64,000 nt of DNA from Candidatus Binatia bacterium (GTDB lineage: Bacteria > Desulfobacterota > Binatia > Bin18): positions 1,824,001 to 1,888,000 of the forward strand of contig OY761159.2 in assembly GCA_963664395.2 (NCBI GenBank). Direction: 5' to 3'. The notes under the pieces are model-generated. The model was not told where the DNA came from and ran no database searches. It saw only the letters and a program-made list of their open reading frames with translations. The position numbers were made by a program, and so were the translations under genes. Every line of letters starts with the position of its first letter. Positions within the stretch are counted from its first letter, which is position 1. Shown one piece after another: positions 4,171 through 60,542 of this stretch.

Positions 4171-5175
4171 TCACACCAGGAGCTCTCGGGCAGCGTGGGC
4201 AGCGCCGACTTGGGCCGCTTTGGGATTCAAGATGATGCGAACCGGCATATCTTGCAGGAGCCGGCTAAAGCGCCCTTTGTCCATAAAAGACCGCATAAAT
4301 AAACCAGCCGTCATTTTGGGGAGCAGCTTGGTCACGATCCCCCCGCCAATATACACCCCGCCAATACTCATCACCGTTAAGGCGAGATTGCCGGCTTGAG
4401 CCCCATACAAACTCACAAACATATCCACCGCTTCCACACAGGTCTGGCAGGTGCCGGCTACGCCGGCTTCACCGATGACTGCGGCTGCGTCTTCGGTTTG
4501 CAGGCGTGCCCGGAGGGTCTCTGCCACCGGGCGCTGTAGCACCTGATGCAAAAAATTGAAGATGCTCACCAGGCCGGGACCGGACAGAATGCGCTCACAG
4601 GACACCCGCCCGTTGTACTGCTTTCTGAGGAAGTGCAGCAACTCCACTTCCTTTTCGTCCCGAGGCGAGAAATCAACATGGCCGCCTTCCGTAGCAGCCG
4701 GCATATGGCGCTGTCCATCCCAAAAGAGAAATGCCTGCCCAAGGCCGGTTCCGGCCGCAATCACCGCACAGTTGCCACGCCGGAGTTTGCCCGTATTGAG
4801 AATCCGGACTTCATCCGCCGGCAGGAACAGGACACCATAGGCTGTTGCCTCAAGGTCGTTCATGAGCCGTACTTGGCCACCCCCTATGGCCCGGCGTATG
4901 CCGGGGGCTTCAACTTTCCACGGCAAATTTGTCGCCTCGACTGTTCCGTCAAGAACCGGCCCGGCAATACCAAATGCGCCGGCCGCTATTGATTTGTCTG
5001 CCGCCTTATAGCGAAAGTCAGCAATGACTTCCTCCAGCCCGGTATAATGCGCACTCGGAAAAGACGCTTCCCGAACGAGGGAGAGCCCTTTCCGCCCTTC
5101 AACCGCATACAGCGCATACAGGGCCAGGTTGGTCTTGGTTCCGCCAACATCACCGGCCAGGACATGGGTTGTCAT
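4171..5175 (-). CDS. glk: Glucokinase
   Basis: LAGDVGGTKT, GIAGPV, TNLPW, MNDLEA, GTGLG, EGGH. Confidence 0.93.
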   Translation of the reverse strand: MTTHVLAGDVGGTKTNLALYALYAVEGRKGLSLVREASFPSAHYTGLEEVIADFRYKAADKSIAAGAFGIAGPVLDGTVEATNLPWKVEAPGIRRAIGGGQVRLMNDLEATAYGVLFLPADEVRILNTGKLRRGNCAVIAAGTGLGQAFLFWDGQRHMPAATEGGHVDFSPRDEKEVELLHFLRKQYNGRVSCERILSGPGLVSIFNFLHQVLQRPVAETLRARLQTEDAAAVIGEAGVAGTCQTCVEAVDMFVSLYGAQAGNLALTVMSIGGVYIGGGIVTKLLPKMTAGLFMRSFMDKGRFSRLLQDMPVRIILNPKAAQVGAAHAARELLV

Positions 5176-13369: not shown

Positions 13370-15592
13370 TCAGGGCCGAGGCTCATGGGACGAGAAACGA
13401 CGCAGCACATTCCCCGTAATACGCGAGACTGTGTTGTCATAGTTGTTGTGAGACAGCGCTCCGCACCAGGCAATCGAGCCTGTTGAGAAAACGGCGCCGC
13501 CGTTTGGATATTCAAAGTAGACCATATCGGACCGCACCTTGCGATTGACACTGCCGCCTTGCTGAGAATCGCTCATCAGAACTTCCTCAATCACATGCTG
13601 ATACGAGTCGGAGTGCCCAAACGAAGTAGCCAGAACAAGCGCGTGGTCCGGGGTTCCCAGGGTAGTATCCGCACGGTCGAGCTCAAAGCCTGCCGCTCCG
13701 TGGTGTAAGACCAGGGAATCGAAGTCGCCGATCATCTCTTGTTCGCCAACGCCTTCAAAAATGAATGCCGCACGGGGGTCAGTGCTGTCCGTCTGACGAC
13801 GATAGGGCGCGCTCGTGTCAAAACCTTGCGAGATAAACCCAACGCCGACTAAGCGTTGGGGCGCTTTGCCTCGGGTGCGCCACATCCCCCCAGGTTCCCC
13901 AGTCGTACTGAGATGATGTTCTCCAGGCTTGGCATCCCAGCTGCGGGTTCCACCCCAGCGCCGGACTTCCACTACATGCGGCCGTTCTGGGTCAAACGCC
14001 GTCACCCAATAAAAGCCATTGCCACCCAGATACATCAGCCGCCCACCCCGTTGCAGATAGGCTTCCAACGCGGTCAGCATAGGGCCGGACCAATACTCCG
14101 GGTGACTGCCGGTGATGATGACTTTATAGGGCGAAAGAAGATCAACACCTTCAAAATGCAGGTTCTCATCTGTGATCACATCACAAGGCTGATCCTGCTG
14201 TTCCAACCAATCGATGAGGTGTAAATCAGCCGGGAATTGATGCGGACAGTTGAGGGCACGCATGTGATAGCGCGGTCGCATATTGAGAATCGGTCGCAGC
14301 CGCGTCGAGTAACACACCCCACTGCCATCAGTATGATGGTCGTACAGACTCAGTAAGCCATTCTCTATCGCATATTGATCGTCGGGCGAGGGAGCGCCCT
14401 GCTTTTGATTGGGAAATAGCTCCGGCGGCAGGTCGGTGAGTTGTTCGTTGGCATAGGCCAGATAGCTATTAGTCGGAGCGAGGAAGGCGATGCTGGCAGA
14501 CGCCGCGCCTTTAGGAGGCCGGACAAAGAAGGGGATATGATCTTCGCTGTCCCCAGCTCTGAGGCGCGCCGCATAGACGCCGCTCTTCAATTGCGCGGGC
14601 AGCGTCCATTCAAAGTCTACCTGCCAGCGTGCGTCATCCAGATCATCAGCATGAAAATGAATCGCGCCATACTCAGGCAAGGCATTCCGGAAATCCGTCT
14701 CCTGCCCGCTCCAGTTATAGCCGGTCATTGCCCGAGCCGGCATGTTGATGGTTTGCCCGTGCAAGCCGTGCGGCGAGGTGTCAGACACTTTTTGTGAAGA
14801 AATATCTTTGGAGAACTCCCAGGCGGCGGCAAGCGCATCGCCAAAGGCCAGCGGATCGGCGCCTCTCTGCAACGACACAAGCTCTGCCTGACTGAGCGCC
14901 CGGTTGAACACGCGTGGCCGGTCGATCTTGCCGTTGAAATGGCTGCTGATACGCGGGGCGCCGTCCTCTTCAGCCTGCCCCATGCCGGCCATCACAAAAA
15001 CCGTGTCGTTTGCCTGAACCGTTTTGATCTGGGTTGATGCTTCTACAGTGGTCTCATCACCCGGCCACGCCCGTACCGGCTCTTGATACAGACACACCCT
15101 GGAACCATACGCATCATACGTTGCCGCCACAAAATACCACTCTGCAGGACGGAGCGGTGAGGTCAGTCTGACTTTTTCAGTCCGGCCGTCTTGATCGCTC
15201 AGCCAGAGGGCCAGCACTCCGCTTGCGTCAATGCAGAGTCCATACCCCCCTCCTTCGGCCCCCCACTTGGACAGGAGACCCTGTACGCCTTTTTGGGGGG
15301 TAGTGGGATAGATCCAGGCTTGCAAGGTAAAGCCATACGGCATCCGCAGGACGGGAGTATCCGGCACGACCACGTGAGACCCGGTATGGATCTCCTGCTG
15401 ACGGCCCGGATATTCCTGACTCACTGGCGTAGAGATAAATGCTTCCTTAAAGCCCGGGCCCTTGGGGTTGGGGTCGCCGTGGATCAAGCGTACAATGTCC
15501 GCCTGGTAGGTGGGCTGTTGACAGCTCACATAAAAGCGCAGGGTTTCCCCTGGCGCGACGCTGAGTCGATCAGCATAGCCAACAACTTCCAT
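13370..15592 (-). CDS. N,N-dimethylformamidase large-subunit family protein with LamG-like insert
   Basis: GYADRLSV.PGE, YGAIHFH.DD, SYLAYAN, HPEYWS, YLGGNGFYW, GGAVFSTGSI.W. Confidence 0.88.
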   Translation of the reverse strand: MEVVGYADRLSVAPGETLRFYVSCQQPTYQADIVRLIHGDPNPKGPGFKEAFISTPVSQEYPGRQQEIHTGSHVVVPDTPVLRMPYGFTLQAWIYPTTPQKGVQGLLSKWGAEGGGYGLCIDASGVLALWLSDQDGRTEKVRLTSPLRPAEWYFVAATYDAYGSRVCLYQEPVRAWPGDETTVEASTQIKTVQANDTVFVMAGMGQAEEDGAPRISSHFNGKIDRPRVFNRALSQAELVSLQRGADPLAFGDALAAAWEFSKDISSQKVSDTSPHGLHGQTINMPARAMTGYNWSGQETDFRNALPEYGAIHFHADDLDDARWQVDFEWTLPAQLKSGVYAARLRAGDSEDHIPFFVRPPKGAASASIAFLAPTNSYLAYANEQLTDLPPELFPNQKQGAPSPDDQYAIENGLLSLYDHHTDGSGVCYSTRLRPILNMRPRYHMRALNCPHQFPADLHLIDWLEQQDQPCDVITDENLHFEGVDLLSPYKVIITGSHPEYWSGPMLTALEAYLQRGGRLMYLGGNGFYWVTAFDPERPHVVEVRRWGGTRSWDAKPGEHHLSTTGEPGGMWRTRGKAPQRLVGVGFISQGFDTSAPYRRQTDSTDPRAAFIFEGVGEQEMIGDFDSLVLHHGAAGFELDRADTTLGTPDHALVLATSFGHSDSYQHVIEEVLMSDSQQGGSVNRKVRSDMVYFEYPNGGAVFSTGSIAWCGALSHNNYDNTVSRITGNVLRRFSSHEPRP

Positions 15593-21609: not shown

Positions 21610-22809
21610 TCAGGAGTCTTCTAATTGAAGGACGGCTACTTCAGGAATGCGGGGTAACCCCTGACGTTGCAGATACAGGGCAAATCGCTGCTGGATTCTG
21701 GTCAGAAAAGGGTGCAGTAGACGACCGATACGCTTATCCTTTAGAGCCGAATATTTCTCTATGCGGAGTTTTTTGAAGTCGAACCGTATGCTTTTCCTAT
21801 CGTAAATGGAGAATGCGATGCTCTCCCATATTCGCTCGGAAAAGTGCCCGTTTTGTCTTTGATAGCTATCAGAGAGTTGCTTGTCGCTCATCTTTTTTCC
21901 CTCGATGCAATACAATTCCACCTCGTCCGATTCTCCGTCTCTTCTGGGAACGCAGTCGCAGTCCGGTCGGAGATTGAGCAGAAATTTCCCCCGGGGCTGT
22001 CTGAACAAGTCGCCGCACCTGATCTCGTCTTCCGGCAAGTTATTCTGTGCGCGGAAACTGGTTTCGCCGACCAGCGCACGCAAATCCTCCCTGGGAACCT
22101 CAGCATAAGGAGCGGCGAGAATTTCCGTCTCGAACGCGCTCGTCCGCATGCGCCCCCGCAGGCTGTCGTTGATCAGATGCGTGAGGGACGAACTCGGGTC
22201 CACGCTGTCGTCTTTGTACGCTTTCCAGAACACCCTGGGCCAGTCCGAGCTTCTTGCGTACATCGAACCGAACAGCTCTTTCTTAGCGGCATAGAATGCC
22301 TGTTCCCAGGTTTTCAGGGTATACACTGACGCGTTTTTCCTGACCCAGCCTTCGATGGTGCTGGAATTTAGTGAGCCGTCGTCGGACAGGAGGTTGCCCT
22401 TCCGCTGAATGAATACGAAACTCTTCTCCGACGATTCCTCCGGGTAAATGTCCTTAGGCAAATTGCTCTTAATATAATCAGGACTCTCATTGGTGAAAAT
22501 GAAGACCGGCACGAAGTAGTCTTTTGCTTTTTTAAGGAACTGAATGTTTTTCTTGACGCCCGTCCGCTCTAGTTCGGAAGCACCGCGCGGCCATAGCTCC
22601 CAGTCCAGGAGGACGAAACTAGCGGCCTGCAGCAGATTGGGCCAGGTCTTCTCCGGTGGCATCTCTTTAGCCTTGTAGAATGGCAAGTCCCATTCCTGTT
22701 CGACTTGTTCAACGATCTTGACAATTCGATCTTCGGTCCCGTCTCCACCGTCTTCGATTTTGTCGTCAATCACAACGGCGATGCCGGACATCAGGCTTTT
22801 GAGTTCCAT
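21610..22809 (-). CDS. Receiver (REC)-domain protein with uncharacterised C-terminal domain
   Basis: IAVVIDD, FVLLDWEL, PVFIFT; C-terminal RCGDLF...RPDCDC; TAATG overlap with the kinase gene. Confidence 0.75.
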   Translation of the reverse strand: MELKSLMSGIAVVIDDKIEDGGDGTEDRIVKIVEQVEQEWDLPFYKAKEMPPEKTWPNLLQAASFVLLDWELWPRGASELERTGVKKNIQFLKKAKDYFVPVFIFTNESPDYIKSNLPKDIYPEESSEKSFVFIQRKGNLLSDDGSLNSSTIEGWVRKNASVYTLKTWEQAFYAAKKELFGSMYARSSDWPRVFWKAYKDDSVDPSSSLTHLINDSLRGRMRTSAFETEILAAPYAEVPREDLRALVGETSFRAQNNLPEDEIRCGDLFRQPRGKFLLNLRPDCDCVPRRDGESDEVELYCIEGKKMSDKQLSDSYQRQNGHFSERIWESIAFSIYDRKSIRFDFKKLRIEKYSALKDKRIGRLLHPFLTRIQQRFALYLQRQGLPRIPEVAVLQLEDS

Positions 22810-25010
22810 TAAGTATCTTCCTTTACAAAGCTAACGACGAAGTTAGCACCAGGCAGAAATTGCTGATGAGCCTCAGCGGCAGCGATACGGTAGTCGTGCC
22901 GCTCCAATAGCTGGCGGGCGATGTACAGACCTAGACCTCGCCCTTCCTGTCCTTTCCCGGAGTAGAACGGCTCGAATATATGTGGCAGATCTTCCGGATC
23001 GATGCCGGGACCGTTATCCGAAAAAATCAACTCTCCTTGGTCTCCGTCGATGGTAACGCGGATTTCCCGCTCAGCGGAGTTAAGGGTGTCCAGCCAATAA
23101 GAGGCGTTGTCAAATAGGTTGATCAAGACCTGCATGACCACCCCGTCCGTGGTGCTGGCCACCAGTGGTGAACCGCCTACTTTGACCTTTTGATAGTGGA
23201 TATCTCTTTGTTCAAGCAGGCTCTTGTAAATTTGGTATATCTTGTCCAATACCGGCTCGACTTTAAGGACCTTCCGCCTTTGCCGCGACGACTTGAACAG
23301 ACTCTGCACGTCCCGCATCCCGTCTGCGATCTGCTGCAACACCCCGACCAGCATGTCCGCCTGCTCCTGGATTTCGTCGTCGCCCACCGTCCGCGATGTC
23401 CGGGCGAGCCGCTTGCCTATGTCCTGAGCACGATTCATCAGGAGCATGATGTCGTGGGAAGCCATTTCCACGGACAGGCCGACACCGGCCAAGTCCTCGG
23501 TCATCTCGGCGCGTCGCGATAGATACTCTTTCTCCCGCTCATACTCCGCTTTGATCCTCGCAACCTTACGAACCTGGGATTTGTGCCCCGCCCTCTCAAG
23601 TCCCTCCTTCAGGTCCACCAAATTCTGAGCGACCACCCCCTCGCGTACAAACCGGGCGGTGTTGCGCTGTATCTGTTTCTGCTGATAGCGCGCGAACGGA
23701 TGCTGCTTAATATAGGATAAGAAAGCCTGGACCAAGAAAATGAAATCACCCGCTGCACCGCCAATCTCGATTAAGCCCTCCCGGCTAGTCTTATCCCGCA
23801 GTTCAGGATTACCTTCCTGGGTAATGTCGACCCAGCCGATGATCTGATCGTTGCTGAAAAAATCGCCCGCTCGCCCGGTGCCACGAGTTACATCGATGTT
23901 CAGCCAGTCGTCATCTGGATCGCCGTACGGATACACCCTCACACCGTCTCGGTACAGATAGATCCGATGGTCCTTGAGCAGGTCCTTTTCATCTTGGCGC
24001 AACGCATACCGGCCATCGATACCGCGTGAAAAATCGAAAATGTAGAATTGGAATGCAAAATCCCCGCATTTGTATTTTTGGGCTGCTGCTATACGGACGC
24101 CAGCTTTGCCGAAGCGCTGCCGCCATATCCATAGGCCCTTGATTTTTGCGTCCTCCAAGCCGATTTTCTCGTTGTCTGCGTTGGTCTTGAATAAGAACGC
24201 GTTTTCCTCGGACTGAAAGCGACCCTGGATGTTCAGCACCGACTTGTCTTCGATTAGAGCCTTCAGCGTCTCCGTACTGTCGGATTCGACTGACCGGCGC
24301 TCACCGTTGCAGAAAATAGCGACCTCGAAGCGGTCGGCGGCCTTGCGGTGCGTAATCCGTGAGACAGGGTCTGTCAAATTCGAGACATCCCGGCACAGTT
24401 GCTTAATGATACTGTTGTTCCAGACGCCCTTCAGGTTCTGAATTTCGATAACAGTACCGTGCTTTACGCCCGGCAATTTTTCGGGTTTGGACTGCGAACA
24501 ATCGATTTTTATCTCATCCAGGAAAATTTCTTTCTCTTTGCCGTTCTCCAACACAAAATCGTCGTCGAACCGGGAAAAGTCGTAAGCCAGCACGGTCTCA
24601 AAGTCCACTCTACGCGGGCGCGTTGTGACCGTGATCACTCTGCCCAGTTTCAGGACTGCAAAGCGTCCAATACCCTTTTCGCCTTGGATTACTCGCTTCT
24701 TACCAGGCGTTTTTGCCTTTCCCTGCTGCTTGTCGAGATATTTTTGCGGCGCGGCAGGATTCATCCACTGGGTCCGCACGGTCTCGGGCGTCATCCCGGT
24801 GCCGTTATCCCGCACCACGATGCGTGAATACCCCTCGTGCGACATGTCCTCGTTGAAATCTTCGAACAACACCTTGACCCGGCTGGCGTCCGCGTCGTAG
24901 GCATTCTTTATCAGTTCGACCAGCGCGATCCTCTCATTCTTGATTAACTGGTCGCCCAGCATGGTCAGCAGCCGGGCGTAAGGGCGAATCGACAGCGCTT
25001 CGGGCTTCAT
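22809..25010 (-). CDS. GHKL (MutL/MORC-like) ATPase fused to a histidine kinase
   Basis: N-terminal ELIKNAYDADA, DNGTGM, GEKGIGRFA; C-terminal ASHDI, NLFDNA, DNGPGI, FEPFYS, GRGLGL. Confidence 0.87.
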   Translation of the reverse strand: MKPEALSIRPYARLLTMLGDQLIKNERIALVELIKNAYDADASRVKVLFEDFNEDMSHEGYSRIVVRDNGTGMTPETVRTQWMNPAAPQKYLDKQQGKAKTPGKKRVIQGEKGIGRFAVLKLGRVITVTTRPRRVDFETVLAYDFSRFDDDFVLENGKEKEIFLDEIKIDCSQSKPEKLPGVKHGTVIEIQNLKGVWNNSIIKQLCRDVSNLTDPVSRITHRKAADRFEVAIFCNGERRSVESDSTETLKALIEDKSVLNIQGRFQSEENAFLFKTNADNEKIGLEDAKIKGLWIWRQRFGKAGVRIAAAQKYKCGDFAFQFYIFDFSRGIDGRYALRQDEKDLLKDHRIYLYRDGVRVYPYGDPDDDWLNIDVTRGTGRAGDFFSNDQIIGWVDITQEGNPELRDKTSREGLIEIGGAAGDFIFLVQAFLSYIKQHPFARYQQKQIQRNTARFVREGVVAQNLVDLKEGLERAGHKSQVRKVARIKAEYEREKEYLSRRAEMTEDLAGVGLSVEMASHDIMLLMNRAQDIGKRLARTSRTVGDDEIQEQADMLVGVLQQIADGMRDVQSLFKSSRQRRKVLKVEPVLDKIYQIYKSLLEQRDIHYQKVKVGGSPLVASTTDGVVMQVLINLFDNASYWLDTLNSAEREIRVTIDGDQGELIFSDNGPGIDPEDLPHIFEPFYSGKGQEGRGLGLYIARQLLERHDYRIAAAEAHQQFLPGANFVVSFVKEDT

Positions 25011-26251
25011 CGCTTTCTCCCGATGACGACGAATTCTTCACCGTACACCTGACGCTGCGTCGAATCCCGAGTGAACCGACCCCGGGCATCCCGGTATGGA
25101 GTCATGATCTTCAACGAAATTTTGCGTGGGATAGTTTTTACGCCGAGAAAATCCGCGCGCTCCATGCAGTCCACCAAATGTTTAGCATTGTCGATCTTGA
25201 CGTTTTTGTACTGCGTGTTCCCGATCACGAAAACCGCCATCCCGCCGTCATTCAGCATACGCTCGCACTTGGCAACCGCTTTGTCCATGTCGAGAAAGTA
25301 GCGCGCCACTGAATGCGCCTTTCGTCGGTCTTCGTGCAGCAGGCCACGATAGGTTTCCTCAGCGGCCGCTCCGAGACCTTCAACCGCGGCGGGTTTGGGC
25401 GGTTCCACACCATACTGGTTGCCGAGCATATTTTTCCGTAGCACGCGATAGTCGGATGCATAGCGCAGCCACAGTGTCGAAAGCTGATGGATACTCGCAT
25501 AGTCGTATGAAGTGACGTACGGCGGGCTGGTGACGATCAGATCGGCCCTCCAGTCCGGCTCCGTAGACGCCAGAAAATTCTGCGTCCGGATGCGGACTCG
25601 CGGGCTGGGGGTCGGGAAACAGTTCTGCTGGTTTGCGTTTCGCATTAAGACGAACTGCTCCTCGAACGCCTCCATAACTCGGCTCGGTGACTTATGCGGA
25701 TCGAGTTGCGCCTTGATGGACTTCGTCAGCCATCGGGAGGTCGGCTTCAGGATATTCGAGAACCCACAGAGAAAAAATTTCCGGTACGCACTGCGGGCTG
25801 GAGTCTGCTGTCGGATCGCTTGGTCGAGCCGGATCAAGTCTTCGATGTTGCGTTCCTCGAACCAGTACCGCATCCGGTCGCTAATTCGTACATGTTCCTC
25901 CTGGGTGGGCTCTACGCGGCGAAATTCGTCCTTGATGGCGTCAAAGTGCCGCGCCAGAACTGCGTCCTGGTAGTGATGGGTTTTCACCTGCGCGATCAGC
26001 ACAGCGACGGGGTTGATGTCGCACCCCCAGAATTTTTTTCCGTTCCTTTTCGCTTCTACCGCAGTGGTGCCACATCCACAGAAAACGTCTGCAACGACTC
26101 TCACGTTCACGCCTTGCTGTTCGGCGTACCGCAGGGCCTTGGTAGTGATAAAAGCGGGAAATTTTGCAGGATAGCTGTGAATCCTGTGGATCGGATCCTC
26201 TCTATCTTCTCCAAAATTCCAGTATGAGGTTGAATTGTCGGAACTACTCAT
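25007..26251 (-). CDS. DNA methyltransferase, probably N4-cytosine, alpha motif order
   Basis: IHSYPAKF, DVFCGCGTT (motif I) precedes TSPPY (motif IV); ATGA overlap with the downstream gene. Confidence 0.88.
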   Translation of the reverse strand: MSSSDNSTSYWNFGEDREDPIHRIHSYPAKFPAFITTKALRYAEQQGVNVRVVADVFCGCGTTAVEAKRNGKKFWGCDINPVAVLIAQVKTHHYQDAVLARHFDAIKDEFRRVEPTQEEHVRISDRMRYWFEERNIEDLIRLDQAIRQQTPARSAYRKFFLCGFSNILKPTSRWLTKSIKAQLDPHKSPSRVMEAFEEQFVLMRNANQQNCFPTPSPRVRIRTQNFLASTEPDWRADLIVTSPPYVTSYDYASIHQLSTLWLRYASDYRVLRKNMLGNQYGVEPPKPAAVEGLGAAAEETYRGLLHEDRRKAHSVARYFLDMDKAVAKCERMLNDGGMAVFVIGNTQYKNVKIDNAKHLVDCMERADFLGVKTIPRKISLKIMTPYRDARGRFTRDSTQRQVYGEEFVVIGRKR

Positions 26252-26288
26252 GACCCCCACCGCCCACTGTTCTCACCGGATAAAGTCC

Positions 26289-28015: not shown

Positions 28016-29365
28016 ATGCATTTCATGTGGTTCACAGAACGCGCCTATCACTACGACCCGGAAGAACATCCGGAGCAATACCGCGATCTCGAAAACGAGA
28101 TTATTCGCAAACGTAGCTTTTTCGGGACGCCGAACCGCTATTTTAATCGCCAGCATGGCGCGCGGCTGCTCAATCAATATCTCGACGAGAAGATCTACAC
28201 CGACCAGGAGCTGATGAACTTTGACGGTATTATGCTCAACGAGCACCATGCCAATCCGTTCTGCCTGGGCGCGGTCATGGATGTCGAAGCCTCGGTATTA
28301 GCCAAGACGACCAGCCGGGTCAAAATGGCCCTGCTGGGCAATCCGGTTCCGACCGTCTCGAATGCGCTCCGGCTGGCCGAAGAGCTGGCCATGATCGACC
28401 TGATTTCAAACGGTCGCTTGACCACTGGCTGGGTACGCGGCGCCGGCAGCGAGCAACTCGCCAACAATACCAACCCGGCCTATAACCGTGAATACTTTGA
28501 AGAGGGCATCGACTTTATCGTCCAGGCGTGGACCAAGCCGGGCCCGTTTCGGTATGAAGGCAAACACTTCCACTTCCGGCACGTCAATCCCTGGGTGCTG
28601 CCCGTCCAAGAGCCGCATCCTCCCTTCTGGATTCCCGGTCTCATCAGCCCCGAGACGGTTGCGTGGTGCGCCAAGAACCGCTACCCCTACGTGGCCCTGG
28701 CTACCCGACTCGAACCGACCTTGGAACTGTGGGATTTCTACAATACAGCCGCAGCCCGTGAGGGCTATCAGGCCGGGCCGGAGAATTTTGGCTATCTGCA
28801 ACCCGTCATGGTCGCGGATACGCAAGAGCGCGCGGAAGAAATGGGCAAGCGCATTCTGTACGGCGGCGCCTTTGCGCATTTCGCCCGGCCCGAATGGATG
28901 TTTCCGCCGGGCTATAACTCGAAAGCGGCGACCCGCCGGCTGGCCCGGACGAACTTCGGCGTCAATGCCTCTGCCGGGCCTCTGTACGGTGAGGGTGGAG
29001 AAACGACGGTCGAAGAGATCGAAGCCGTCAAAAAGACCATTTATGATAGCTATCCCGGTGTCCTCAAAGATATGGTCATGATCGCGGGTACGCCGGACAA
29101 CGTGATTCCGAAGCTCAAGAAAATCCAGGATATCCTGCGTCCGGGCATCTTCTCCTTCTGGCTGGACGGCCCGGTCCCGGCCAAGGACCGGATGCGCTGT
29201 CTGGAACTGCTCAACCGCGACGTCATTCCGGCCATGCGCGAGCACGGCAAAACGCTGGGTCTGGTTGACCCGTTTGAGCAAAAACCCGGCTCACGGCCCC
29301 TGACCAACGGCAAGCCCGAACCCGTCAGTGACCCGCAGATACTCGCGGAACTCATGGCTGCCTAG
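28016..29365 (+). CDS. LLM-class flavin-dependent oxidoreductase
   Basis: LNEHH, RLAEELAMID.ISNGRL, EGKHF, P.QEPHPP.W, AGTPD.V. Confidence 0.88.
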   Translation: MHFMWFTERAYHYDPEEHPEQYRDLENEIIRKRSFFGTPNRYFNRQHGARLLNQYLDEKIYTDQELMNFDGIMLNEHHANPFCLGAVMDVEASVLAKTTSRVKMALLGNPVPTVSNALRLAEELAMIDLISNGRLTTGWVRGAGSEQLANNTNPAYNREYFEEGIDFIVQAWTKPGPFRYEGKHFHFRHVNPWVLPVQEPHPPFWIPGLISPETVAWCAKNRYPYVALATRLEPTLELWDFYNTAAAREGYQAGPENFGYLQPVMVADTQERAEEMGKRILYGGAFAHFARPEWMFPPGYNSKAATRRLARTNFGVNASAGPLYGEGGETTVEEIEAVKKTIYDSYPGVLKDMVMIAGTPDNVIPKLKKIQDILRPGIFSFWLDGPVPAKDRMRCLELLNRDVIPAMREHGKTLGLVDPFEQKPGSRPLTNGKPEPVSDPQILAELMAA

Positions 29366-29419
29366 TCCGGCGGCCTGTTCTGGGAACGTCCGCAGACCAT
29401 ATGCAGGGGGAGGTTAGGC

Positions 29420-30229
29420 ATGAGTGATTTCGATCCCACCCAGCGCGGATTTGTCAGCTATATTGACAAATCACGCGAGCATTATCTCGCCCAGGGCTAC
29501 AGTAATCCCTACCGCTGGGCGTCCCACCCGGACGCCCCGTTCACGCCGCTGACAAAACCGCTCGCTGAAAGCCGGGTCGCTCTGGTCACCACCGCGGCCC
29601 CGGATTTGCAAGGCGGGCGGAAGCGCAGCCTGTATGCCGCGGCCACCCGACCGGTGCCCGCGGCGCTCTACACCCGGCATCTGTCGTGGCACAAAACGGC
29701 TACCCATACCGACGATGTCGAAACCTTCCTGCCTGTTCGCCGCTTAAATGAATACGGGGCCGAAGGCCGGCTCGGCAGCCTGTCGCCGCGCTTCTATGGC
29801 GTGCCCACGGTCTATAGTGTGCGCCAGACTGTGCACGAGGATGCCCCGGCCGTGCTCGACTTCTGTCGTGAGGATGGGGTCGATATTGCCCTGCTGGTCG
29901 CCCTGTGACCGGTGTGTCACCAGACCGTGAGTCTGGTCGCCCGACATCTGGAGACGCAGGGCATCCCAACGGTCGTCCTCGGCTCGGCGCGCGATATTGT
30001 TGAGCAGTGCGGCGTGCCGCGTTTTGTCTTTACCGACTTTCCCCTCGGCAATCCATGCGGCAAGCCCGACGACAAGGACATGCAGCGAGCTATCGTCGGG
30101 ATGGCGCTCGACCTGCTTGAGACCGCGCGCTATCCGCGCACGACGCTACAAACGCCCTTTCAGTGGGACGAAACCGGCGAGTGGCGCGAGACGTATATGG
30201 AGCTTGCTGAGGACACGCAAGCGGCGTAG
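29420..30229 (+). CDS. GrdB/PrdB-like selenoprotein with UxxC (in-frame TGA 29906-29908 read as Sec)
   Basis: The two track ORFs are in one frame, separated only by TGA-CCG: ALLVAL-U-PVCHQTVSLVARHLE..GIPTV; SECIS-like hairpin downstream. Confidence 0.82.
29909..29951 (+). promoter_or_regulatory. Bacterial SECIS-like stem-loop
   Basis: ACCAGAC-cgtga-GTCTGGT 7-bp upper stem; 17 nt between UGA and loop; G at loop position 2; extendable lower stem. Confidence 0.75.
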
Positions 30230-31754: not shown

Positions 31755-33059
31755 CTATCCGGTCCGGTCCAGCACATGCTCGCGCAGGGTCGTGCCCGTG
31801 TAGTCGTTTCGATATACCCCGCGTTTCTGGAGTTCCGGGACGAGGAGATTCACCAGCTCTGCATAATAGTCGGGCGCGTAAAACGGTGGCGTAATCTGAA
31901 AGCCGTTGCCGCCGCCCGCTTCGAGGAAGTGCTGCATGGCGTCCGCCACCTGCGCAGGGGTGCCGACCAAGGGATTGGTATCGCTGCCGGCCAGATACGT
32001 TTTCGCAATATCACGCAGCGTGATGTTCTCATCGTATTTTTGATACATCTCAAACAAGCCTCGCGTACCGGGCACGTCCAGGTCCTGGACCGGCACGTCA
32101 AGGGCAAACTGAGACAGGTCGAGATCAAAATGCATCGACATTTGGGCCAAAGACGCTTCGAGCGGAATCCGGGCGCGAATGGCGGCATAGCGTTCACGCG
32201 CTTCCGACTCGCTGTCTGCCACGAGCGGCTGGCCGGCCCACATGATGGGGATGTCGTTCGGATTACGCCCCAGGCGTTCTGCCCGGCTGGCAATATCCTC
32301 ACAAAATGCCCGCATCTGCTTGACGCCGCGAGCGGCACTGAAGATACCCTCGGCGTGTTGGGCGGCAAAGGCCCGCCCACGGTCCGACTGGCCGGCCTGA
32401 AACAGAAACGGACGCCGGCGGACAGAGGGCATCACCGTAAATGGTCCCTGGGTCTTATACCACTGCCCCTGAAAATCGACCCGGTGGACTTTGGACGGAT
32501 CGGCAAAGACCTTATGCTCCATGTCCATCTGCACCGCATCCGCGTCCCAACTGTTCCACAGGCCGTGACAGACCTGCATATACTCGTCGGCGCGCTCATA
32601 GCGGTCGTTGTGCGCCGGCAGGCTGTCCATACCGAAGTTTTTCGCCTCGGCCGTTGAGGTCGAAGACACGATATTCCAGCCAATCCGCCCTTGGGTGAGA
32701 TGGTCGAGCGTCGATAAAGTCCGGGCCAGCAGAAACGGCGGGTAAAAGGTCGTGGACATGGTGACGGCAAAGCCGAGTTTTTTGACCACCGCCGAGAGAT
32801 AGGTCACCAGAGAGACCGGGTCGTGACTGGGGAATTGGATCGCATAGCGCACTTGATCGGGTTGCGTTCCACCAGCCAGGCTATCCGCGAAAAACAGCAT
32901 GTCGAACTTGCCGCGCTCCAGCGTGTGCACCACGGATTCCCAGTATTCGCCCTCGTACCACTTGTGACGGATTTTCTCACGCGGATAGATCCAGGACAGC
33001 GGCATATGCGGAGCTGGGGTAAAAAGCGCGAAGCCGGCAAGATGGATTTGCTTGGGCAT
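31755..33059 (-). CDS. NtaA/DmoA/SoxA family FMN-dependent monooxygenase
   Basis: ERGKFDMLFFAD, TLDHLTQGRIGWNIV, FQAGQS.RG..FAA.HAE, VPELQ.RG.YR.DY.G.TLRE. Confidence 0.9.
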   Translation of the reverse strand: MPKQIHLAGFALFTPAPHMPLSWIYPREKIRHKWYEGEYWESVVHTLERGKFDMLFFADSLAGGTQPDQVRYAIQFPSHDPVSLVTYLSAVVKKLGFAVTMSTTFYPPFLLARTLSTLDHLTQGRIGWNIVSSTSTAEAKNFGMDSLPAHNDRYERADEYMQVCHGLWNSWDADAVQMDMEHKVFADPSKVHRVDFQGQWYKTQGPFTVMPSVRRRPFLFQAGQSDRGRAFAAQHAEGIFSAARGVKQMRAFCEDIASRAERLGRNPNDIPIMWAGQPLVADSESEARERYAAIRARIPLEASLAQMSMHFDLDLSQFALDVPVQDLDVPGTRGLFEMYQKYDENITLRDIAKTYLAGSDTNPLVGTPAQVADAMQHFLEAGGGNGFQITPPFYAPDYYAELVNLLVPELQKRGVYRNDYTGTTLREHVLDRTG

Positions 33060-50580: not shown

Positions 50581-52653
50581 CTACAGCTCGCGACCACATT
50601 GCTCACCGTCAAAAATGGCCGCCGTTACATCTCGCGGGGCGGCCACATCACCGATTCTGACGACTTCCGGGAAGGCGTCTTTGGCCGCGACATAGAGTTC
50701 GTCGTTGGGTACGCGAAGAATCGACATCACCACGCTATCGATCCGCTCTCGGGTTTCCAGCACTTCCGGCCCGGCCCAGATATCATACACGTCGACTTCG
50801 CCAGGACGGATCGCTTCGACAAAATATTGCTGGGTAATCCGTACGCCCAGCTTCTTCAGCCTGGGGAAGATATACATGATATCCAGGTTGCGAAAGAGGC
50901 GTTCGCCGGCAAACATGCGCGGGCTGAGGATCTCGACCTCCACCCCTGCTTTGGCCAGAACCTGGGCCAGGGCAAAAGGTAAATGGCTACCTGTTTCATC
51001 CAGGATGAGCACGCGTGAGCCGAGCGCCTGGGCGTCTTCGAGGGCCTGCTTGGTCGCGGTGCCGACATCAAGCACGTGGGATAAATCAGTGCCGGGAATC
51101 TCTTCGCGTTCGGGACGATAGAGACTCAGGCCGGTGCGTTCGTAAGCGGCACCGGTTGCAACAACAACGCTGGAGGCCTCGATATTCCGGAGTGATTGCC
51201 GGGTGACCTCAATGCCGCAGCGGACATCGACCCCCGCATTTTCGACCTCTCGCTCCAGGTTGTCGATCGCAATCGACCAGTCTGTCATTCCTGGCAGTTG
51301 TTCCAGCACACGCAAATGGCCGCCTAGCTTGTCGGCGCGTTCAAGCAAGGTGACCGCGTGACCGCGCCTGGCAGCCACCGCGGCGGCCTTCATACCGGCG
51401 GGCCCGCCACCGATGACCACAATATGCTTTTGATCTGCCTCCGGGACTCTCTTCAGTGAACCCTCTCCCCAGTAGGCTTCTCTGCCGCTGACCGGATTCA
51501 GGGTGCAGACGAGTTCACGGTGTTCAAACAGACGCGCCCCGCATTCATTACACCGGTTGCAGCGGATGATTTCGTGTTCGCGGCCTTCACGCGTCTTTTT
51601 CACCGTAAAGGGATCGGTCAGGAGCTGTCTGGCCAGTGCGACCATGTCTGCCGCGTCGCTTGCCAGGATGGCTTCCGCCGTGTGGAGATCACGGATCTTG
51701 CCCACCACAAAGACCTTGCCTCGGCCGCCCACGATTTCCTTGGCGCGTTTGCTGAACGGCGCCAGCCAGCCGTCTGGCTCCTCCCCTTCCATACTGGGTA
51801 GCGCCAGATGGAGGGTGTGGTAGCCGCCGGCCGAGATGTCGAAGAAGTCAAACAAGCCGGTCGCCGCCAGCACCTCGACCTGTTCTTCTGCCTGCTCCGG
51901 GGTAATCCCACCTTCGGGGCCAAGGAATTCATCCCACGACAGCCGCACCCCCACCACAAAGTCAGCCCCGACCCGCTTCCGTACTTGCTCGGCACATTCG
52001 ATGAGCAGTTGACAGCGCTTGGCCGGTGTCCCGCCGTAGGCGTCGTCGCGTTTATTGTAGGTCGGGCTCATAAACTGGCCCAGGCCGTAACTATGCGCCC
52101 CGTGCAACTCGACCCCATCCAGCCCGGCGCGCTTGACGTTTGCCGCCGACTGGCCGAAGTCGCGGGTTAATTCCGCGATCTCGTCGGTCCCCATCACCAG
52201 GGGAATTTCGTTGTGGACGACCGAGGGGATACGCGACGCGCCCCAGATGGGTTTGTTGCGGTCTATGAACATCCGGCCGCGGTCGTGGACGCCCATGGAG
52301 GCGAGCTGGACAAAGATGCTGGTGTCATACTGATGCACGGCGTCGGCCAGCTTGCTCATGGATGGAATACAACCCTCGTTCCAGACATCAACGATATGGA
52401 AAAACGAGCCCAGCGCGCTCCGGGCGGCCGCAACGGTTTCGGTAATGCACAGCGCCACGCCGCCTTTGGCGCGCTCGCGAAAATACGCGATCTGTCGGTC
52501 AGAGAAAACATGGTCGCGCGGGTCGCCGTGCTGCGAGCTATGGGCGGGTTGCAGAATGCGATTCCGCAGGGTGAGATTGCCGAGTTGCAGCGGCTCCCAC
52601 ACGCGTGACAGCTCGCTACTTTTTGCTCCACTCGGTTGTGCCGACGTGCTCAT
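50581..52653 (-). CDS. FMN/Fe-S/FAD oxidoreductase, OYE / trimethylamine-dehydrogenase-like
   Basis: RERAKGG, ELHGAHSY, SP.YNKR.D.YGG, CNRCNEC-x11-C, GGGPAG, ATGA. Confidence 0.88.
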   Translation of the reverse strand: MSTSAQPSGAKSSELSRVWEPLQLGNLTLRNRILQPAHSSQHGDPRDHVFSDRQIAYFRERAKGGVALCITETVAAARSALGSFFHIVDVWNEGCIPSMSKLADAVHQYDTSIFVQLASMGVHDRGRMFIDRNKPIWGASRIPSVVHNEIPLVMGTDEIAELTRDFGQSAANVKRAGLDGVELHGAHSYGLGQFMSPTYNKRDDAYGGTPAKRCQLLIECAEQVRKRVGADFVVGVRLSWDEFLGPEGGITPEQAEEQVEVLAATGLFDFFDISAGGYHTLHLALPSMEGEEPDGWLAPFSKRAKEIVGGRGKVFVVGKIRDLHTAEAILASDAADMVALARQLLTDPFTVKKTREGREHEIIRCNRCNECGARLFEHRELVCTLNPVSGREAYWGEGSLKRVPEADQKHIVVIGGGPAGMKAAAVAARRGHAVTLLERADKLGGHLRVLEQLPGMTDWSIAIDNLEREVENAGVDVRCGIEVTRQSLRNIEASSVVVATGAAYERTGLSLYRPEREEIPGTDLSHVLDVGTATKQALEDAQALGSRVLILDETGSHLPFALAQVLAKAGVEVEILSPRMFAGERLFRNLDIMYIFPRLKKLGVRITQQYFVEAIRPGEVDVYDIWAGPEVLETRERIDSVVMSILRVPNDELYVAAKDAFPEVVRIGDVAAPRDVTAAIFDGEQCGREL

Positions 52654-54842
52654 CTGCCTCCTCCTCTTTGGGACAACGACTCAGAAGCTGCTCTCTGCTC
52701 AGGCTCCCCGGATTCAGGTAGAGCAAAGGGGAGAGGGTCGGCAAAGCGGCGCACCACATTGGCCGTAATCTGAGCAATATCGTTGTCATAGCCGTTGCGA
52801 GCAAGCGCCCCAAACCACGAAATCGAGCCAACTGAAAACACGGCCCCACCGGCCGGTGTCTCAAAAAACACAAGGTCTGCCCGGACAACCGGATCAGGGG
52901 AGGGCACGACGGTCGACGCCTGGAGCTCTTCTTTGGTCCGGGTCATGTCAGGCCCAAACTCGGTTGCAGAAGCGAGGATAAGCGCGTGGGCGGGGGAACC
53001 GAGCGTTTGGCTGTAGCGATCAACCTCCTGACCGGCAGCCCCGCCGCCGAGCCCTGAGGTGCCAATCTCTTCAGCCGTCACACCTTCAAATATCCAGGCG
53101 GCACGAGAGGTATAGCTCTCCGGACTGCGCTGATAGCCGATGGCCCGTTCAAAGCCCTGAGCGGCAAACCCCACTCCCACGAGGGTATTCGGCGCCCGAC
53201 CCAAGCGCCGCCACAAGCCGCCGTACTCACCGGTAAAGGCGTGGTAAGACTCTCCCGGCTCGGTTTGCCAGTTGCGCACACCGTCCTCGGCCCGCCGTAA
53301 TTCGACTGCCCCAGGCCAGGCATCGCTCAGCGCCACACGCCAATAAAATCCGTTGCCGCCGAGATACATCAACCGCCCCCCACGCCGCAGCCATACTTCA
53401 AGGGCGTCGAGCATCCTGGTTGACCAATACTCCGGGTGAGTGCCAGTCACAATGACACGGTACGGAGCCAGCGCGGCTATCCCTTCGGCGTGGACATCTT
53501 CGTCAGCGAGGATATCGTGACCAAGCTGGAGATGATCGAGGAAGGCGTTAATATCCGTGTCCGGGGTGAAATTCCAACCGTCAGCCCCCGGTCGGAGTTG
53601 GAGCACGGGGCGGCGTCGAGAGCTGAACATGACTCCACTGCCATCCGTATGTTTCTCGTAAGTAGATCGACCAACTTCAGGATGGTGGCGCAGATATTCG
53701 TGCTCAGGCCGCAGGCGGGAGCGCGTGGCGATAAAGTCTGCGCCTTCAAACAGCATGCGGTGATTGGCGTAGGCCATATAGGTGCAGGAGGACATGAGCA
53801 GGGCGACGTCGGCCGTTGGTGCCTGGCGGGCGGGACGAACGAAAAACGGCACCCGATCCTGGCCCTGAGCCGTGCGGAGGCGAAAGGCATAGATGCCGCT
53901 GGCAAGATCAGCCGGCAAGGTCAGCTCTGCGATGGCCGGCCAGCCGGCGTCATATACATCGTCAGTATGAAAATGAATGGCGTCATAATGCGACGGCATA
54001 GACGTCCAGGCTTGATGGCTGCCGTCCCAATCGGGACCGGTGACCGCCCGAGCGGGAAGCTGGTGGAGGAGGCCATGGCGTTCATTGCCACTGACGTCAA
54101 CGATCTGCCTCCCTCCCATGTCTTTGGAGAAGTCCCATTCCAGGGTCGTCGCATCAAGGGTCAGCACGGGTCTGGCAAGGCGACCGTCGAAGCGAGCGCC
54201 CTCAGCGGAAGCCGCGAACAAGCAACAGCGGAGCGGTCCCGGTGGTGTTTCGCTGAGTGAGGTGGAAGCGGTGCGTGGCCCGAATCGCTCAAAGATGTCC
54301 TGGCCAGGTGAACGGCTCGGCTGTGGGGTGAGGGTTCCGGTGACAACTCTCTCCCTCAGGTCTGCTGTGATTTCGACCTGGTACCAGCGCTTGGCCTGGA
54401 GGGGTTGCTCTCGGAGCAGCAGCTCGGTTCGCCCAATGCGAGTAACAAGACGCCTCTTCGACAGCGTAAGTACCAGCAGCGGTCCTGATTCACCGACGAC
54501 CGAAAACAGGGTCTGATCTTGATCCGGTCGCGTCGCGAAGACGTGCACCTTGAATTTCGTCTGTCGTGTGACCGAGAAGCCTGACAGATCGACTTCGCCG
54601 TAAGAGCCGGGCTGTAAGCGTTGCTGCGTAAGCACAACCTCGGTGGGGAGATCGCTCGGGACTGCTATTTCTTTGAAACCAGGTCCGCTCCGGGTCGGGT
54701 CGCCACAGATAATACGGACGAGATCGAGTCGGGCAGGACCGGGCGTGTGGCTGGAGGCCATACAGCGGATCGATTCCCCGGCGCGGAGTGAGAGTGGTTC
54801 ACAGTAGCCGGTAATGGCCTTTGTGTCCTGGGGATCGTCCAT
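52650..54842 (-). CDS. N,N-dimethylformamidase large-subunit family protein (second paralogue)
   Basis: GDPTRSGPGFKE, YDAIHFH.DD, TYMAYAN, HPEYWS, YLGGNGFYW, GGAVFSVGSISW. Confidence 0.88.
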   Translation of the reverse strand: MDDPQDTKAITGYCEPLSLRAGESIRCMASSHTPGPARLDLVRIICGDPTRSGPGFKEIAVPSDLPTEVVLTQQRLQPGSYGEVDLSGFSVTRQTKFKVHVFATRPDQDQTLFSVVGESGPLLVLTLSKRRLVTRIGRTELLLREQPLQAKRWYQVEITADLRERVVTGTLTPQPSRSPGQDIFERFGPRTASTSLSETPPGPLRCCLFAASAEGARFDGRLARPVLTLDATTLEWDFSKDMGGRQIVDVSGNERHGLLHQLPARAVTGPDWDGSHQAWTSMPSHYDAIHFHTDDVYDAGWPAIAELTLPADLASGIYAFRLRTAQGQDRVPFFVRPARQAPTADVALLMSSCTYMAYANHRMLFEGADFIATRSRLRPEHEYLRHHPEVGRSTYEKHTDGSGVMFSSRRRPVLQLRPGADGWNFTPDTDINAFLDHLQLGHDILADEDVHAEGIAALAPYRVIVTGTHPEYWSTRMLDALEVWLRRGGRLMYLGGNGFYWRVALSDAWPGAVELRRAEDGVRNWQTEPGESYHAFTGEYGGLWRRLGRAPNTLVGVGFAAQGFERAIGYQRSPESYTSRAAWIFEGVTAEEIGTSGLGGGAAGQEVDRYSQTLGSPAHALILASATEFGPDMTRTKEELQASTVVPSPDPVVRADLVFFETPAGGAVFSVGSISWFGALARNGYDNDIAQITANVVRRFADPLPFALPESGEPEQRAASESLSQRGGGR

Positions 54843-58922: not shown

Positions 58923-60542
58923 TCACGAACTGCACGACAGCATGGAACAACCGGGACGCTGGCGGGCCCAGTCGGGCCGTTTTTTCGCGTAGGCTTCTTT
59001 GTCGGGTTGTTCGTCATAGGGATGACGGAGGAGTTCCAACAGATCATGCACCAGGGAGAGGTCGCCCTGCTCGGCCTTGTCGATAGCGAGTTGGGCGAGA
59101 TAGTTGCGCAGCACATATTTGGGGTTGACGGCGTTCATGCGTGTCCGGCGCGTCTCGTTATCCGTTCCATCTTCTCTCACCCGGTCGTGATAGCGGCGTA
59201 GCCACGCGGCAATGCGGGCCGTTGTCTCCGGGGTCAACTGCTCCGGGACGTAATAGGCGTCCAACAGCGGTTCTATAAAAGCGGTATCGCCGATCTGGTC
59301 TACAGGTTTGGCGTCGAGATCACAGCTCGCCAGCCGTCGATAGAAGATGGTCATGTCGGTCTCGGCCAGTTGCAAAATTTCCAGCAGGCCGCCGACCAGG
59401 CTGTCGTCCAGGTCGGGCTTGAAGGACTGGAGCCCCAGTTTGTGGGCCATCGTGGTCTGCCAGCCCGACTCAAATTCCTGGACATAACTGCCCAGCGCTT
59501 TTTCCAGGGGTTCCGTCTGTTCAATCAGGGGGTAGAGCGCGTTGGCAAGCTGGACCAGGTTCCAATGGGCAATCTGGGGTTGTTTGCCAAAGGCATAGCG
59601 GTGACTCGCGGCATCGGTGGTATTGGGCGTCCAGTTGGAGTCATAGTCTTCCAGCCAGCCGTACGGGCCGTAGTCAATCGTCAATCCCAGGATGGACATA
59701 TTATCCGTGTTCATGACCCCGTGGACAAAGCCGACCCGCAGCCAGTGTACAATCATCCGGGCGGTTGTCCGACAGACCTCCTCGAACCAGGCCAGGTAGG
59801 TCGAATGGGATGGCTCGCCCAAATGAGGAAAGTCGGTGCGGATGGTGTAATCCACCAACTGTTGTAAGACGTCGATTTCTCCGCGGGCGGCAAATATCTG
59901 AAAATTGCCAAAGCGCACAAAAGACGGCGCGACCCGGCACACCACGGCTCCCGGCTCGAGTTTGGGGTTGCCATTATAAAACATATCGCGGACGACGTGT
60001 TCACCCGTCGAGACCAGGCTGAGCGCGCGGGTGGTTGGGACACCGAGATGGTGCATGGCTTCGCTGCACAGGAACTCGCGGATGGACGAACGCAAGACAG
60101 CCAATCCATCCGCGCTGCGCGAATATGGTGTTAGACCGGCACCTTTGAGCTGGACCACCCAGCGCTTTCCGGTCGGACCGATGAGCTCGCCCAGGTTAAT
60201 GGCCCGGCCGTCTCCGAGCTGCCCGGCCCAGTTGCCGAACTGATGCCCGCCGTAACACATCGCGTAGGGGTCCATGTCGTCCAAAACCCGATTCCCCGAG
60301 AAGATATGGGGAAAATCGTCCGACTCGCAAAACGTGCGGGACAGACCCAATTCCTCGGCAACTTCCCAGGCGTAGGCAACCAACTGTGGTTGAGCGACTT
60401 TCGCAGGCTGGACACGGGAATAACACGCCTGCGTGACCTGACGGCGGGTGTTTCCAGTTTCTGGGTCGGCCGGCAATTCCCGCGTAAAGCGATTATCGAA
60501 GATGAGTGTCTCTTGCGGCTGGTATTCCTGTTGGGCGTTCAT
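58923..60542 (-). CDS. selO: Protein adenylyltransferase SelO/YdiU
   Basis: YGGHQFG.WAGQLGDGRA, QLKGAG.TPYSR, HGVMNTDN, DYGPY, C-terminal SCSS. Confidence 0.95.
   Translation of the reverse strand: MNAQQEYQPQETLIFDNRFTRELPADPETGNTRRQVTQACYSRVQPAKVAQPQLVAYAWEVAEELGLSRTFCESDDFPHIFSGNRVLDDMDPYAMCYGGHQFGNWAGQLGDGRAINLGELIGPTGKRWVVQLKGAGLTPYSRSADGLAVLRSSIREFLCSEAMHHLGVPTTRALSLVSTGEHVVRDMFYNGNPKLEPGAVVCRVAPSFVRFGNFQIFAARGEIDVLQQLVDYTIRTDFPHLGEPSHSTYLAWFEEVCRTTARMIVHWLRVGFVHGVMNTDNMSILGLTIDYGPYGWLEDYDSNWTPNTTDAASHRYAFGKQPQIAHWNLVQLANALYPLIEQTEPLEKALGSYVQEFESGWQTTMAHKLGLQSFKPDLDDSLVGGLLEILQLAETDMTIFYRRLASCDLDAKPVDQIGDTAFIEPLLDAYYVPEQLTPETTARIAAWLRRYHDRVREDGTDNETRRTRMNAVNPKYVLRNYLAQLAIDKAEQGDLSLVHDLLELLRHPYDEQPDKEAYAKKRPDWARQRPGCSMLSCSS

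Follow-up and report, generated by a model that had tools for sequence, protein, structure and literature searches.

A probable selenocysteine codon in a PrdB-like gene of Candidatus Binatia located apart from reductase genes

Within a 64-kb stretch of a Candidatus Binatia genome (hereafter, the window), a frame resembling the selenoprotein subunits of amino acid reductases is interrupted by a UGA codon. This locus raises the question of whether the codon is translated as selenocysteine (Sec) and, if so, what the product might do outside of a reductase operon. Translation table 11 cuts the frame 29420-30229 into pieces of 162 and 105 amino acids, the latter being an ORF with a GTG start past UGA163. 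Reading the frame through with TGA as U confirmed the layout proposed in the preliminary description, namely the L-TGA-P-V-C-H junction, the 269-aa product and Sec at codon 163: translation starts at the ATG at 29420, the sole internal stop is codon 163 in the motif VAL-U-PVCHQ, and the frame ends with TAG at 30227-30229 (Table 1). A promoter scan upstream of the gene gave nothing above chance.

Table 1. Features of the PrdB-like locus and flanking genes (positions in the window)
Feature	Position	Strand	Basis or remark
Predicted PrdB-like (UPVCHQ subfamily) selenoprotein gene, 269 aa	29420..30229	+	Homology, HMM, TGA/Cys comparison
U163-P-V-C166 motif, TGA 29906-29908 as putative Sec	29906..29917	+	Aligns with clostridial PrdB U151-G-T-C; N-terminal end of modelled helix 164-179
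Shine-Dalgarno-like GGAGGT	29409..29414	+	5 nt before ATG; read from sequence
Candidate bacterial SECIS core, 7-bp stem, loop CGUGA	29919..29937	+	Folding, bacterial model constraints, conservation
Upstream luciferase-like monooxygenase (LLM, PF00296)	28016..29365	+	Context, not a conserved partner
NtaA/DmoA-family monooxygenase, convergent (TIGR03860, 470 bits, cut-off 280)	31755..33059	-	Context; syntenic in 16 of 16 close loci

Comparison with related sequences makes it very likely that this region is one gene in which UGA163 is read as selenocysteine under the direction of an in-frame SECIS hairpin. The preliminary description had expected Cys at this position in homologues. Among the best 120 of 5925 protein matches, 106 are full length, and 105 of these indeed have Cys at column 163; the other one (P0076) has Trp, probably due to a gene caller using another code. 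The remaining 14 of the 120 are the closest database proteins (82-96% identity), and each of them is exactly 162 aa long, ending at the UGA position. Among the 150 listed representatives of 50% clusters, 83 span the site (74 with CxxC and nine with another motif), 27 end at it, nine begin just past it, and 31 are other fragments. A genome scan for relatives of the gene yielded 27 loci, in which codon 163 is TGA (22 loci) or TGC (five loci), and all of the TGA frames stay open for another 102-135 codons. Sixteen close loci, 84-95% identical to the query, are titled Ca. Binatia (15) or Thermodesulfobacteriota (one), and the other TGA loci are titled Chloroflexota (four), Cellvibrionaceae (one) and Pseudohongiella (one). 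A TGA codon at the catalytic Cys column therefore recurs across genomes down to 52% identity. For the window and the 16 close loci (17 orthologues), the pooled pairwise dN/dS was 0.132 before the UGA and 0.087 after it, and the second half is therefore a constrained protein.

The second line of evidence is the SECIS-like hairpin, for which the preliminary description had listed a 7-bp stem, a CGUGA loop, a 10-nt spacing and a G in the loop; all of these details were borne out. The stem pairs ACCAGAC (29919-29925) with GUCUGGU (29931-29937), starting 10 nt past the UGA and opening into the loop at 17 nt, and it was recovered in all five segments folded. The bacterial SECIS model, as given in PMC13188914, has a loop of 3-9 nt, a stem of 4-16 bp, a G in the first two loop positions, a UGA-to-loop distance of 16-37 nt and an MFE of -7.5 or lower. 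The hairpin agrees with this model in four out of four constraints, having a loop of 5 nt, a stem of 7 bp, a G at loop position 2 followed by U, a UGA-to-loop distance of 17 nt and an MFE of -16.9 (42 nt).

Taken in one sequence alone, the hairpin is not beyond chance (about 7%): folding z-scores range from -0.5 to -2.0, an equally long stem with a G-containing loop lies downstream of 143 (7%) of all 2016 TGA triplets of the window, and when the peptide is recoded synonymously, this stem arises in 6.7% of cases. It is the conservation pattern that is beyond chance. Codons 167-172 demonstrate zero synonymous change in 17 orthologues, the lowest value among 257 six-codon windows (median pS 0.26). 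The stem in the same register has 7 bp in 20 of the 23 TGA copies, 6 bp in one and 5 bp in two, versus 0-1 bp in all seven Cys copies, with the caveat that the Cys loci also encode different residues at 169-171. Paired cells make up 95.5% in the TGA copies vs 65.7% in five Cys loci. Two compensatory pairs were observed, both from a single sequence (L015), and nine of 500 shuffles scored as high. The Pseudohongiella copy, whose protein is 52% identical, has a stem-loop identical to that of the query.

As judged from this gene, the comparison suggests that the Ca. Binatia lineage decodes Sec, and we regard this as good indirect evidence. No sel genes were found within the window, including by the SelD and YedF searches described below; ARAGORN predicted no tRNA genes there, and Rfam gave no matches in the window and one ordinary tRNA in nine of the 27 loci scanned. 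A scan for in-frame TGA in UxxC or CxxU motifs followed by a hairpin found no second credible selenoprotein in the window or the 16 close loci; a candidate at 4990(+) in the window was rejected as antisense to glucokinase. The only credible additional candidate across the loci is a TlpA/ResA-like lipoprotein gene with an in-frame TGA in FWTY(S/T)-U-INC and an 8-bp hairpin, found about 3 kb from the family gene in L023 (4243-5109, minus strand) and L018 (4117-4977, minus strand). We predict that it encodes a second hidden selenoprotein; its in-frame UxxC motif and hairpin therefore support Sec use in those hosts. It should be noted that L018 (titled Cellvibrionaceae) and L023 (titled Anaerolineae, of the Chloroflexota) are collinear for about 8 kb and form sister branches of the tree, and one of these contigs may be mis-binned or transferred.

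To which family the product belongs was addressed by profile searches. The best HMM is PrdB (TIGR04483), with 104.7 bits (E 5e-30), below the equivalog cut-off of 300, and the GrdB/GrdF/GrdH models matched the C-terminal part with 32-42 bits (E 4e-8 to 4e-11), below the family cut-offs of 65-800 bits; Pfam gave no match to the query protein (P0001) at E 0.01. The PrdB/GrdB-like character assigned in the preliminary description is thus supported, the protein being closer to PrdB. PrdB is likewise the best HMM for all 101 aligned family members. The query is 26-30% identical to four annotated PrdBs, with U163 aligned to U151 (30% over 219 aa), but it has UPVCHQ where true PrdB has UGTCHR, and the MGGGG loop is replaced. 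In a quick tree of 73 rows, the family is split from true PrdB by a branch with support 99. The Sec forms occupy two places among the Cys forms of this tree, and we therefore tentatively suggest that Sec and Cys were switched more than once in the family. Beyond UxxC, the invariant residues are Y22, Y31, W33, D99, S133, R135, T137 and W255. The C-terminus varies: 22 of the 23 Sec copies terminate 102-109 residues past U (106 in the query), and 105 of the 106 full-length database homologues and all seven Cys loci are longer (median of 133 residues past the motif), with a charged C-terminal segment that the Sec copy L025 also retains.

The structure model (pLDDT 91.8) contains an alpha/beta domain, in which U163 follows strand 156-160 and opens helix 164-179. 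The fold matches listed are of the Rossmann/LacI/SDR type, generic alpha/beta proteins (best Z 9.1, rmsd 3.6, 137 aligned), and such generic matches do not show a new fold. Foldseek gave no match at E <= 0.001, and no thioredoxin-fold protein occurs among the matches listed. Sequence searches for a solved relative yielded none with the single sequence and one irrelevant designed protein with a profile; a phage collection contained no match to the protein. The product is thus modelled as a PrdB-superfamily protein consisting of one alpha/beta domain, in which the predicted U-x-x-C centre lies at the N-terminus of a helix.

The genomic neighbourhoods of the family differ from those of true prdB genes, in agreement with the preliminary description, which had placed the gene outside any reductase operon. 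Searches by tblastn with proteins from true prd clusters (two PrdA, PrdC/D/E/F/H, SelD and YedF) found no match in the 64-kb window or in 29 loci (L001-L029), and the SelO control matched; this test has a limited reach, since tblastn missed TauE genes that Pfam found. No grdA or grdE was seen near the gene. Among the true prdB loci, prdA adjoins in three of four; the RefSeq-annotated prdB on a Peptoclostridium acidaminophilum plasmid (L030, 6010-6723) lacks a prdA in the 6 kb flanking it in each direction. The recurring neighbours elsewhere in the family are TauE (three loci), a glyoxalase-family gene (four) and SelO (three). The TauE sulfite exporter gene follows the family gene in three of the 11 distant loci, which are related to each other and one of which may be mis-binned. 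SelO/YdiU genes are convergent to the family gene or one gene away from it in L016 (2147-3754) and L021 (4390-5997), both Chloroflexota, and in L028 (6899-8371) from Roseomonas. The window also has a SelO gene (58923-60542, minus strand), at a distance of 29 kb from the selenoprotein gene.

Several other features of the window were observed. Between the selenoprotein and NtaA/DmoA genes, the segment 30375-31692 (plus strand) encodes a 269-aa protein without a Pfam match, followed by a PIN-domain protein; with a GC content of about 0.51 and no counterpart among the 27 loci, this pair looks like a toxin-antitoxin-type insertion. A lower-GC block at 21610-26260 (minus strand) encodes an N6/N4 DNA methylase, a 733-aa protein and a 399-aa protein without a family match. 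The 733-aa protein has two HATPase domains, with a weakly BbrUII/HgiDII-like N-terminus and a histidine-kinase-like C-terminus. The block is missing from the relatives, save for a 46-aa remnant in L010, and is possibly a restriction-modification-linked defence island. There are also two genes similar to the beta subunit of N,N-dimethylformamidase (PF20254), at 13370-15592 and 52650-54842 (both on the minus strand).

The gene is not accompanied by one for the pyruvoyl subunit PrdA, and we therefore conclude with considerable confidence that the product does not belong to a D-proline reductase of the Stickland type. We somewhat favour a stand-alone Sec oxidoreductase that would act on a small molecule other than D-proline. 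D-proline reductase binds its substrate through the pyruvoyl group of PrdA, and the alpha carbon is attacked by the Sec of PrdB; both are needed, and the U151C variant of PrdB is inactive (PMC11229817). Related systems without a pyruvoyl group are described as acting on substrates in which the bond is already polarised (PMC10838667), and a PrdA-less PrdB-like protein should therefore attack a bond that is already electrophilic. By analogy with PrdB, the most likely course would be an attack of the selenolate on a bond of this kind in a small molecule, resolution of the resulting adduct by Cys166 to give a selenenylsulfide, and re-reduction of the latter by a thioredoxin-type system.

Natural gene fusions hint weakly at organosulfur catabolism. 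Our survey of 20 longer homologues comprised 19 family fusions and one fusion of true PrdA and PrdB (P0291, 687 aa). Ten of the 20 are fused to an acyl-CoA ligase (two clades, about 34% identical), three to a methylthioribose-kinase-like domain and one, a single cluster, to a 3-mercaptopropionate dioxygenase (E 2.5e-57 against the enzyme of solved structure); two have CoA-transferase pieces that are apparently frameshift-derived, and one each has a LysR domain, a hydrolase and an extension with nothing recognised. All 19 family fusions belong to the distant Cys branch with the NCPVCHQ motif (40-57% identity) and none to the Sec clade, where fused forms would be split by gene callers and hence invisible to this survey. 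The known 3-mercaptopropionate route from dithio- and thiodipropionate involves Mdo, CoA activation, a desulfinase and sulfite export (PMC6370202, PMC5373536), and methylated sulfur compounds are among the substrates described for Binatota (PMC8262859). Because the fusion partners overlap this route and because of these substrates of Binatota, the substrate may tentatively be sought among low-molecular-weight organosulfur compounds with an S-S or activated C-S bond, perhaps a CoA ester, whose product would feed thiol-dioxygenase, CoA-ligase and sulfite-export catabolism. The two organosulfur proteomics papers searched (PMC6370202, PMC5373536) never mention the family. A broader proposal, which we put forward as speculative, is that the marine 'proline reductase', one of the most abundant selenoprotein families of the sea, is mostly not a proline reductase and would instead be a PrdA-independent Sec/Cys reductase of aerobic bacteria that breaks S-S or C-S bonds of small organosulfur compounds, possibly CoA-activated. 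If true, the PrdB fold would have acquired a new use as a single subunit, and a step now missing from organosulfur catabolism in the sea would be accounted for.

The main rival to an organosulfur role, which we consider unlikely, is that the selenoprotein serves general redox housekeeping, such as the reduction of peroxides, sulfoxides or mixed disulfides of proteins and glutathione, and has no catabolic function. The very wide spread of the family (5925 matches) with changing neighbours is consistent with such a role, as are the nearby SelO/YdiU genes in three loci, given that SelO modifies redox proteins, and the TlpA/ResA-like UxxC selenoprotein gene predicted in L018 and L023. In addition, the marine surveys of 2005 and 2008 placed 'PrdB' with its UxxC motif among thiol-redox proteins (PMC1088965, PMC2398784). 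However, the predicted fold is Rossmann/flavodoxin-like, with no thioredoxin fold among the matches listed, the many invariant residues outside of UxxC suggest a specific pocket, and the family was repeatedly fused to small-molecule enzymes.

It is improbable that the protein is the Sec subunit of a two-subunit amino acid reductase, in the role of PrdB or GrdB, with a pyruvoyl subunit encoded elsewhere in the genome. The preference of every aligned family member for the PrdB model fits this scenario, and the P. acidaminophilum plasmid demonstrates that such separation occurs. Identification as a true PrdB is nevertheless rejected by the HMM score far below the cut-off, the low identity, the different motif, the replaced MGGGG loop, the well-supported separate clade and the occurrence of prd genes in none of 30 neighbourhoods, as opposed to the usual adjacency of prdA to true prdB. 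Furthermore, Binatota are described as aerobic, and the main text of the same paper makes no mention of proline reductase or Stickland reactions (PMC8262859).

In an equally improbable scenario, the protein would be dedicated to the LLM monooxygenase encoded upstream, for instance by reducing or recycling what that enzyme has oxidised. The preliminary description had taken the adjacency of these genes as a clue to function. The adjacency itself is correct: both genes are on the same strand with a gap of 54 bp between the LLM stop at 29365 and the ATG, no terminator-like site lies between them, and they are possibly co-transcribed. As a functional clue, it proved weak. LLM is immediately upstream in 13 of the 16 close loci, which at 84-95% identity share gene order by descent, but inserted genes of about 5 kb separate the two in L009 and L022, a remnant of 26 aa is left of LLM in L010, and an orthologue is missing from all 11 distant loci, by which an obligate partnership is rejected. 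Conservation of the LLM and NtaA/DmoA genes is ordinary synteny, with the link to LLM confined to the lineage. Finally, a real stop at UGA163 (a split gene or pseudogene) or its reading as Trp or Cys by a genome-wide code change is extremely improbable, since the GTG-started ORF and the Trp of P0076 that fit it are outweighed by recurrence of TGA at the catalytic Cys column, by purifying selection and the conserved SECIS past the UGA, which reject a pseudogene, and by the use of TGA as an ordinary stop in six of 23 genes of the window alongside 141 TGG codons, which argues against a code change and rejects UGA as Trp.

The preliminary description presented a hidden selenoprotein as a surprise, and this part did not hold, as this subfamily had already appeared among the selenoproteins of the GOS survey of 2008 (PMC2398784). 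Reinstating the mis-called gene as a selenoprotein gene is correct but was to be expected from a subfamily already in print. PrdB is listed among the most widespread bacterial selenoproteins in reviews (PMC9312934, PMC13188914, PMC1794560), and 'PrdB' selenoproteins numbered 42 in the Sargasso survey (PMC1088965) and 235 in GOS (PMC2398784). In GOS sequence supplement 3 (PMC2398784), which opens under a 'Proline reductase' heading, UPVCHQ occurs 86 times, PLUPVCHQ 25 times, SYIDKSRE three times and UGTCH not at all, and the same N-terminal, UPVCHQTVSLVAR and DFPLGNPCG motifs are present. The query fits this UPVCHQ subfamily by its UPVCHQ, Y-x-W-A, S-Q/V-R-x-T and D-F-P-L-G-N-P-C-G segments, as compared by eye without alignment; this comparison covered 14 of the 86 UPVCHQ places plus 28 for narrower motifs, several of which plainly belong to the subfamily.

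A literature search with most subscription journals outside its range yielded neither a functional study of the PrdA-less form nor a report that Binatota use Sec. A term search for the family and for Sec in Binatota added nothing from the main texts of PMC9999580, PMC13326102 and an Actinomarina preprint; the main texts of a 2026 review and of BSepDB do not mention Binatota, and that of the Binatota genome paper (PMC8262859) does not mention selenium. In RefSeq, Cys homologues with 45% identity are named 'glycine/sarcosine/betaine reductase selenoprotein B family protein'. The evidence argues against a proline or glycine reductase name, and this large family is probably misnamed; metabolic reconstructions in which Stickland reactions are deduced from its presence are therefore probably wrong. 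The function of the family is open to testing through the Cys homologues of cultured Bradyrhizobium and Roseomonas.

Compared with known systems, the closest are the 'PrdB' proteins of the Sargasso and GOS surveys, which belong to the same subfamily; those are reads without host or gene context, whereas the present loci come from chromosome-scale Ca. Binatia assemblies. Most of the GOS sequences shown have a C-terminal extension of about 25 aa similar to that of the Cys forms, which the Binatia clade lacks (106 residues past U vs a median of 133). Clostridial and enterococcal PrdB (TIGR04483) share with the query homology over the full domain, UxxC in the same position and an in-frame UGA. The query differs from them in an extra N-terminal helix, a C-terminal W-x-R/W segment, the many Cys forms in its family, a score below the equivalog cut-off, and surroundings without prdA/C/D/E/F/H or sel genes. 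The likeness to GrdB/GrdF/GrdH (PF07355, TIGR01917/TIGR01918) is limited to a weak C-terminal match: GrdB has about 430 aa vs 269 in the query and a second CxxC (UxxCxxC) that the query lacks, and neither grdA nor grdE was seen near the Binatia gene.
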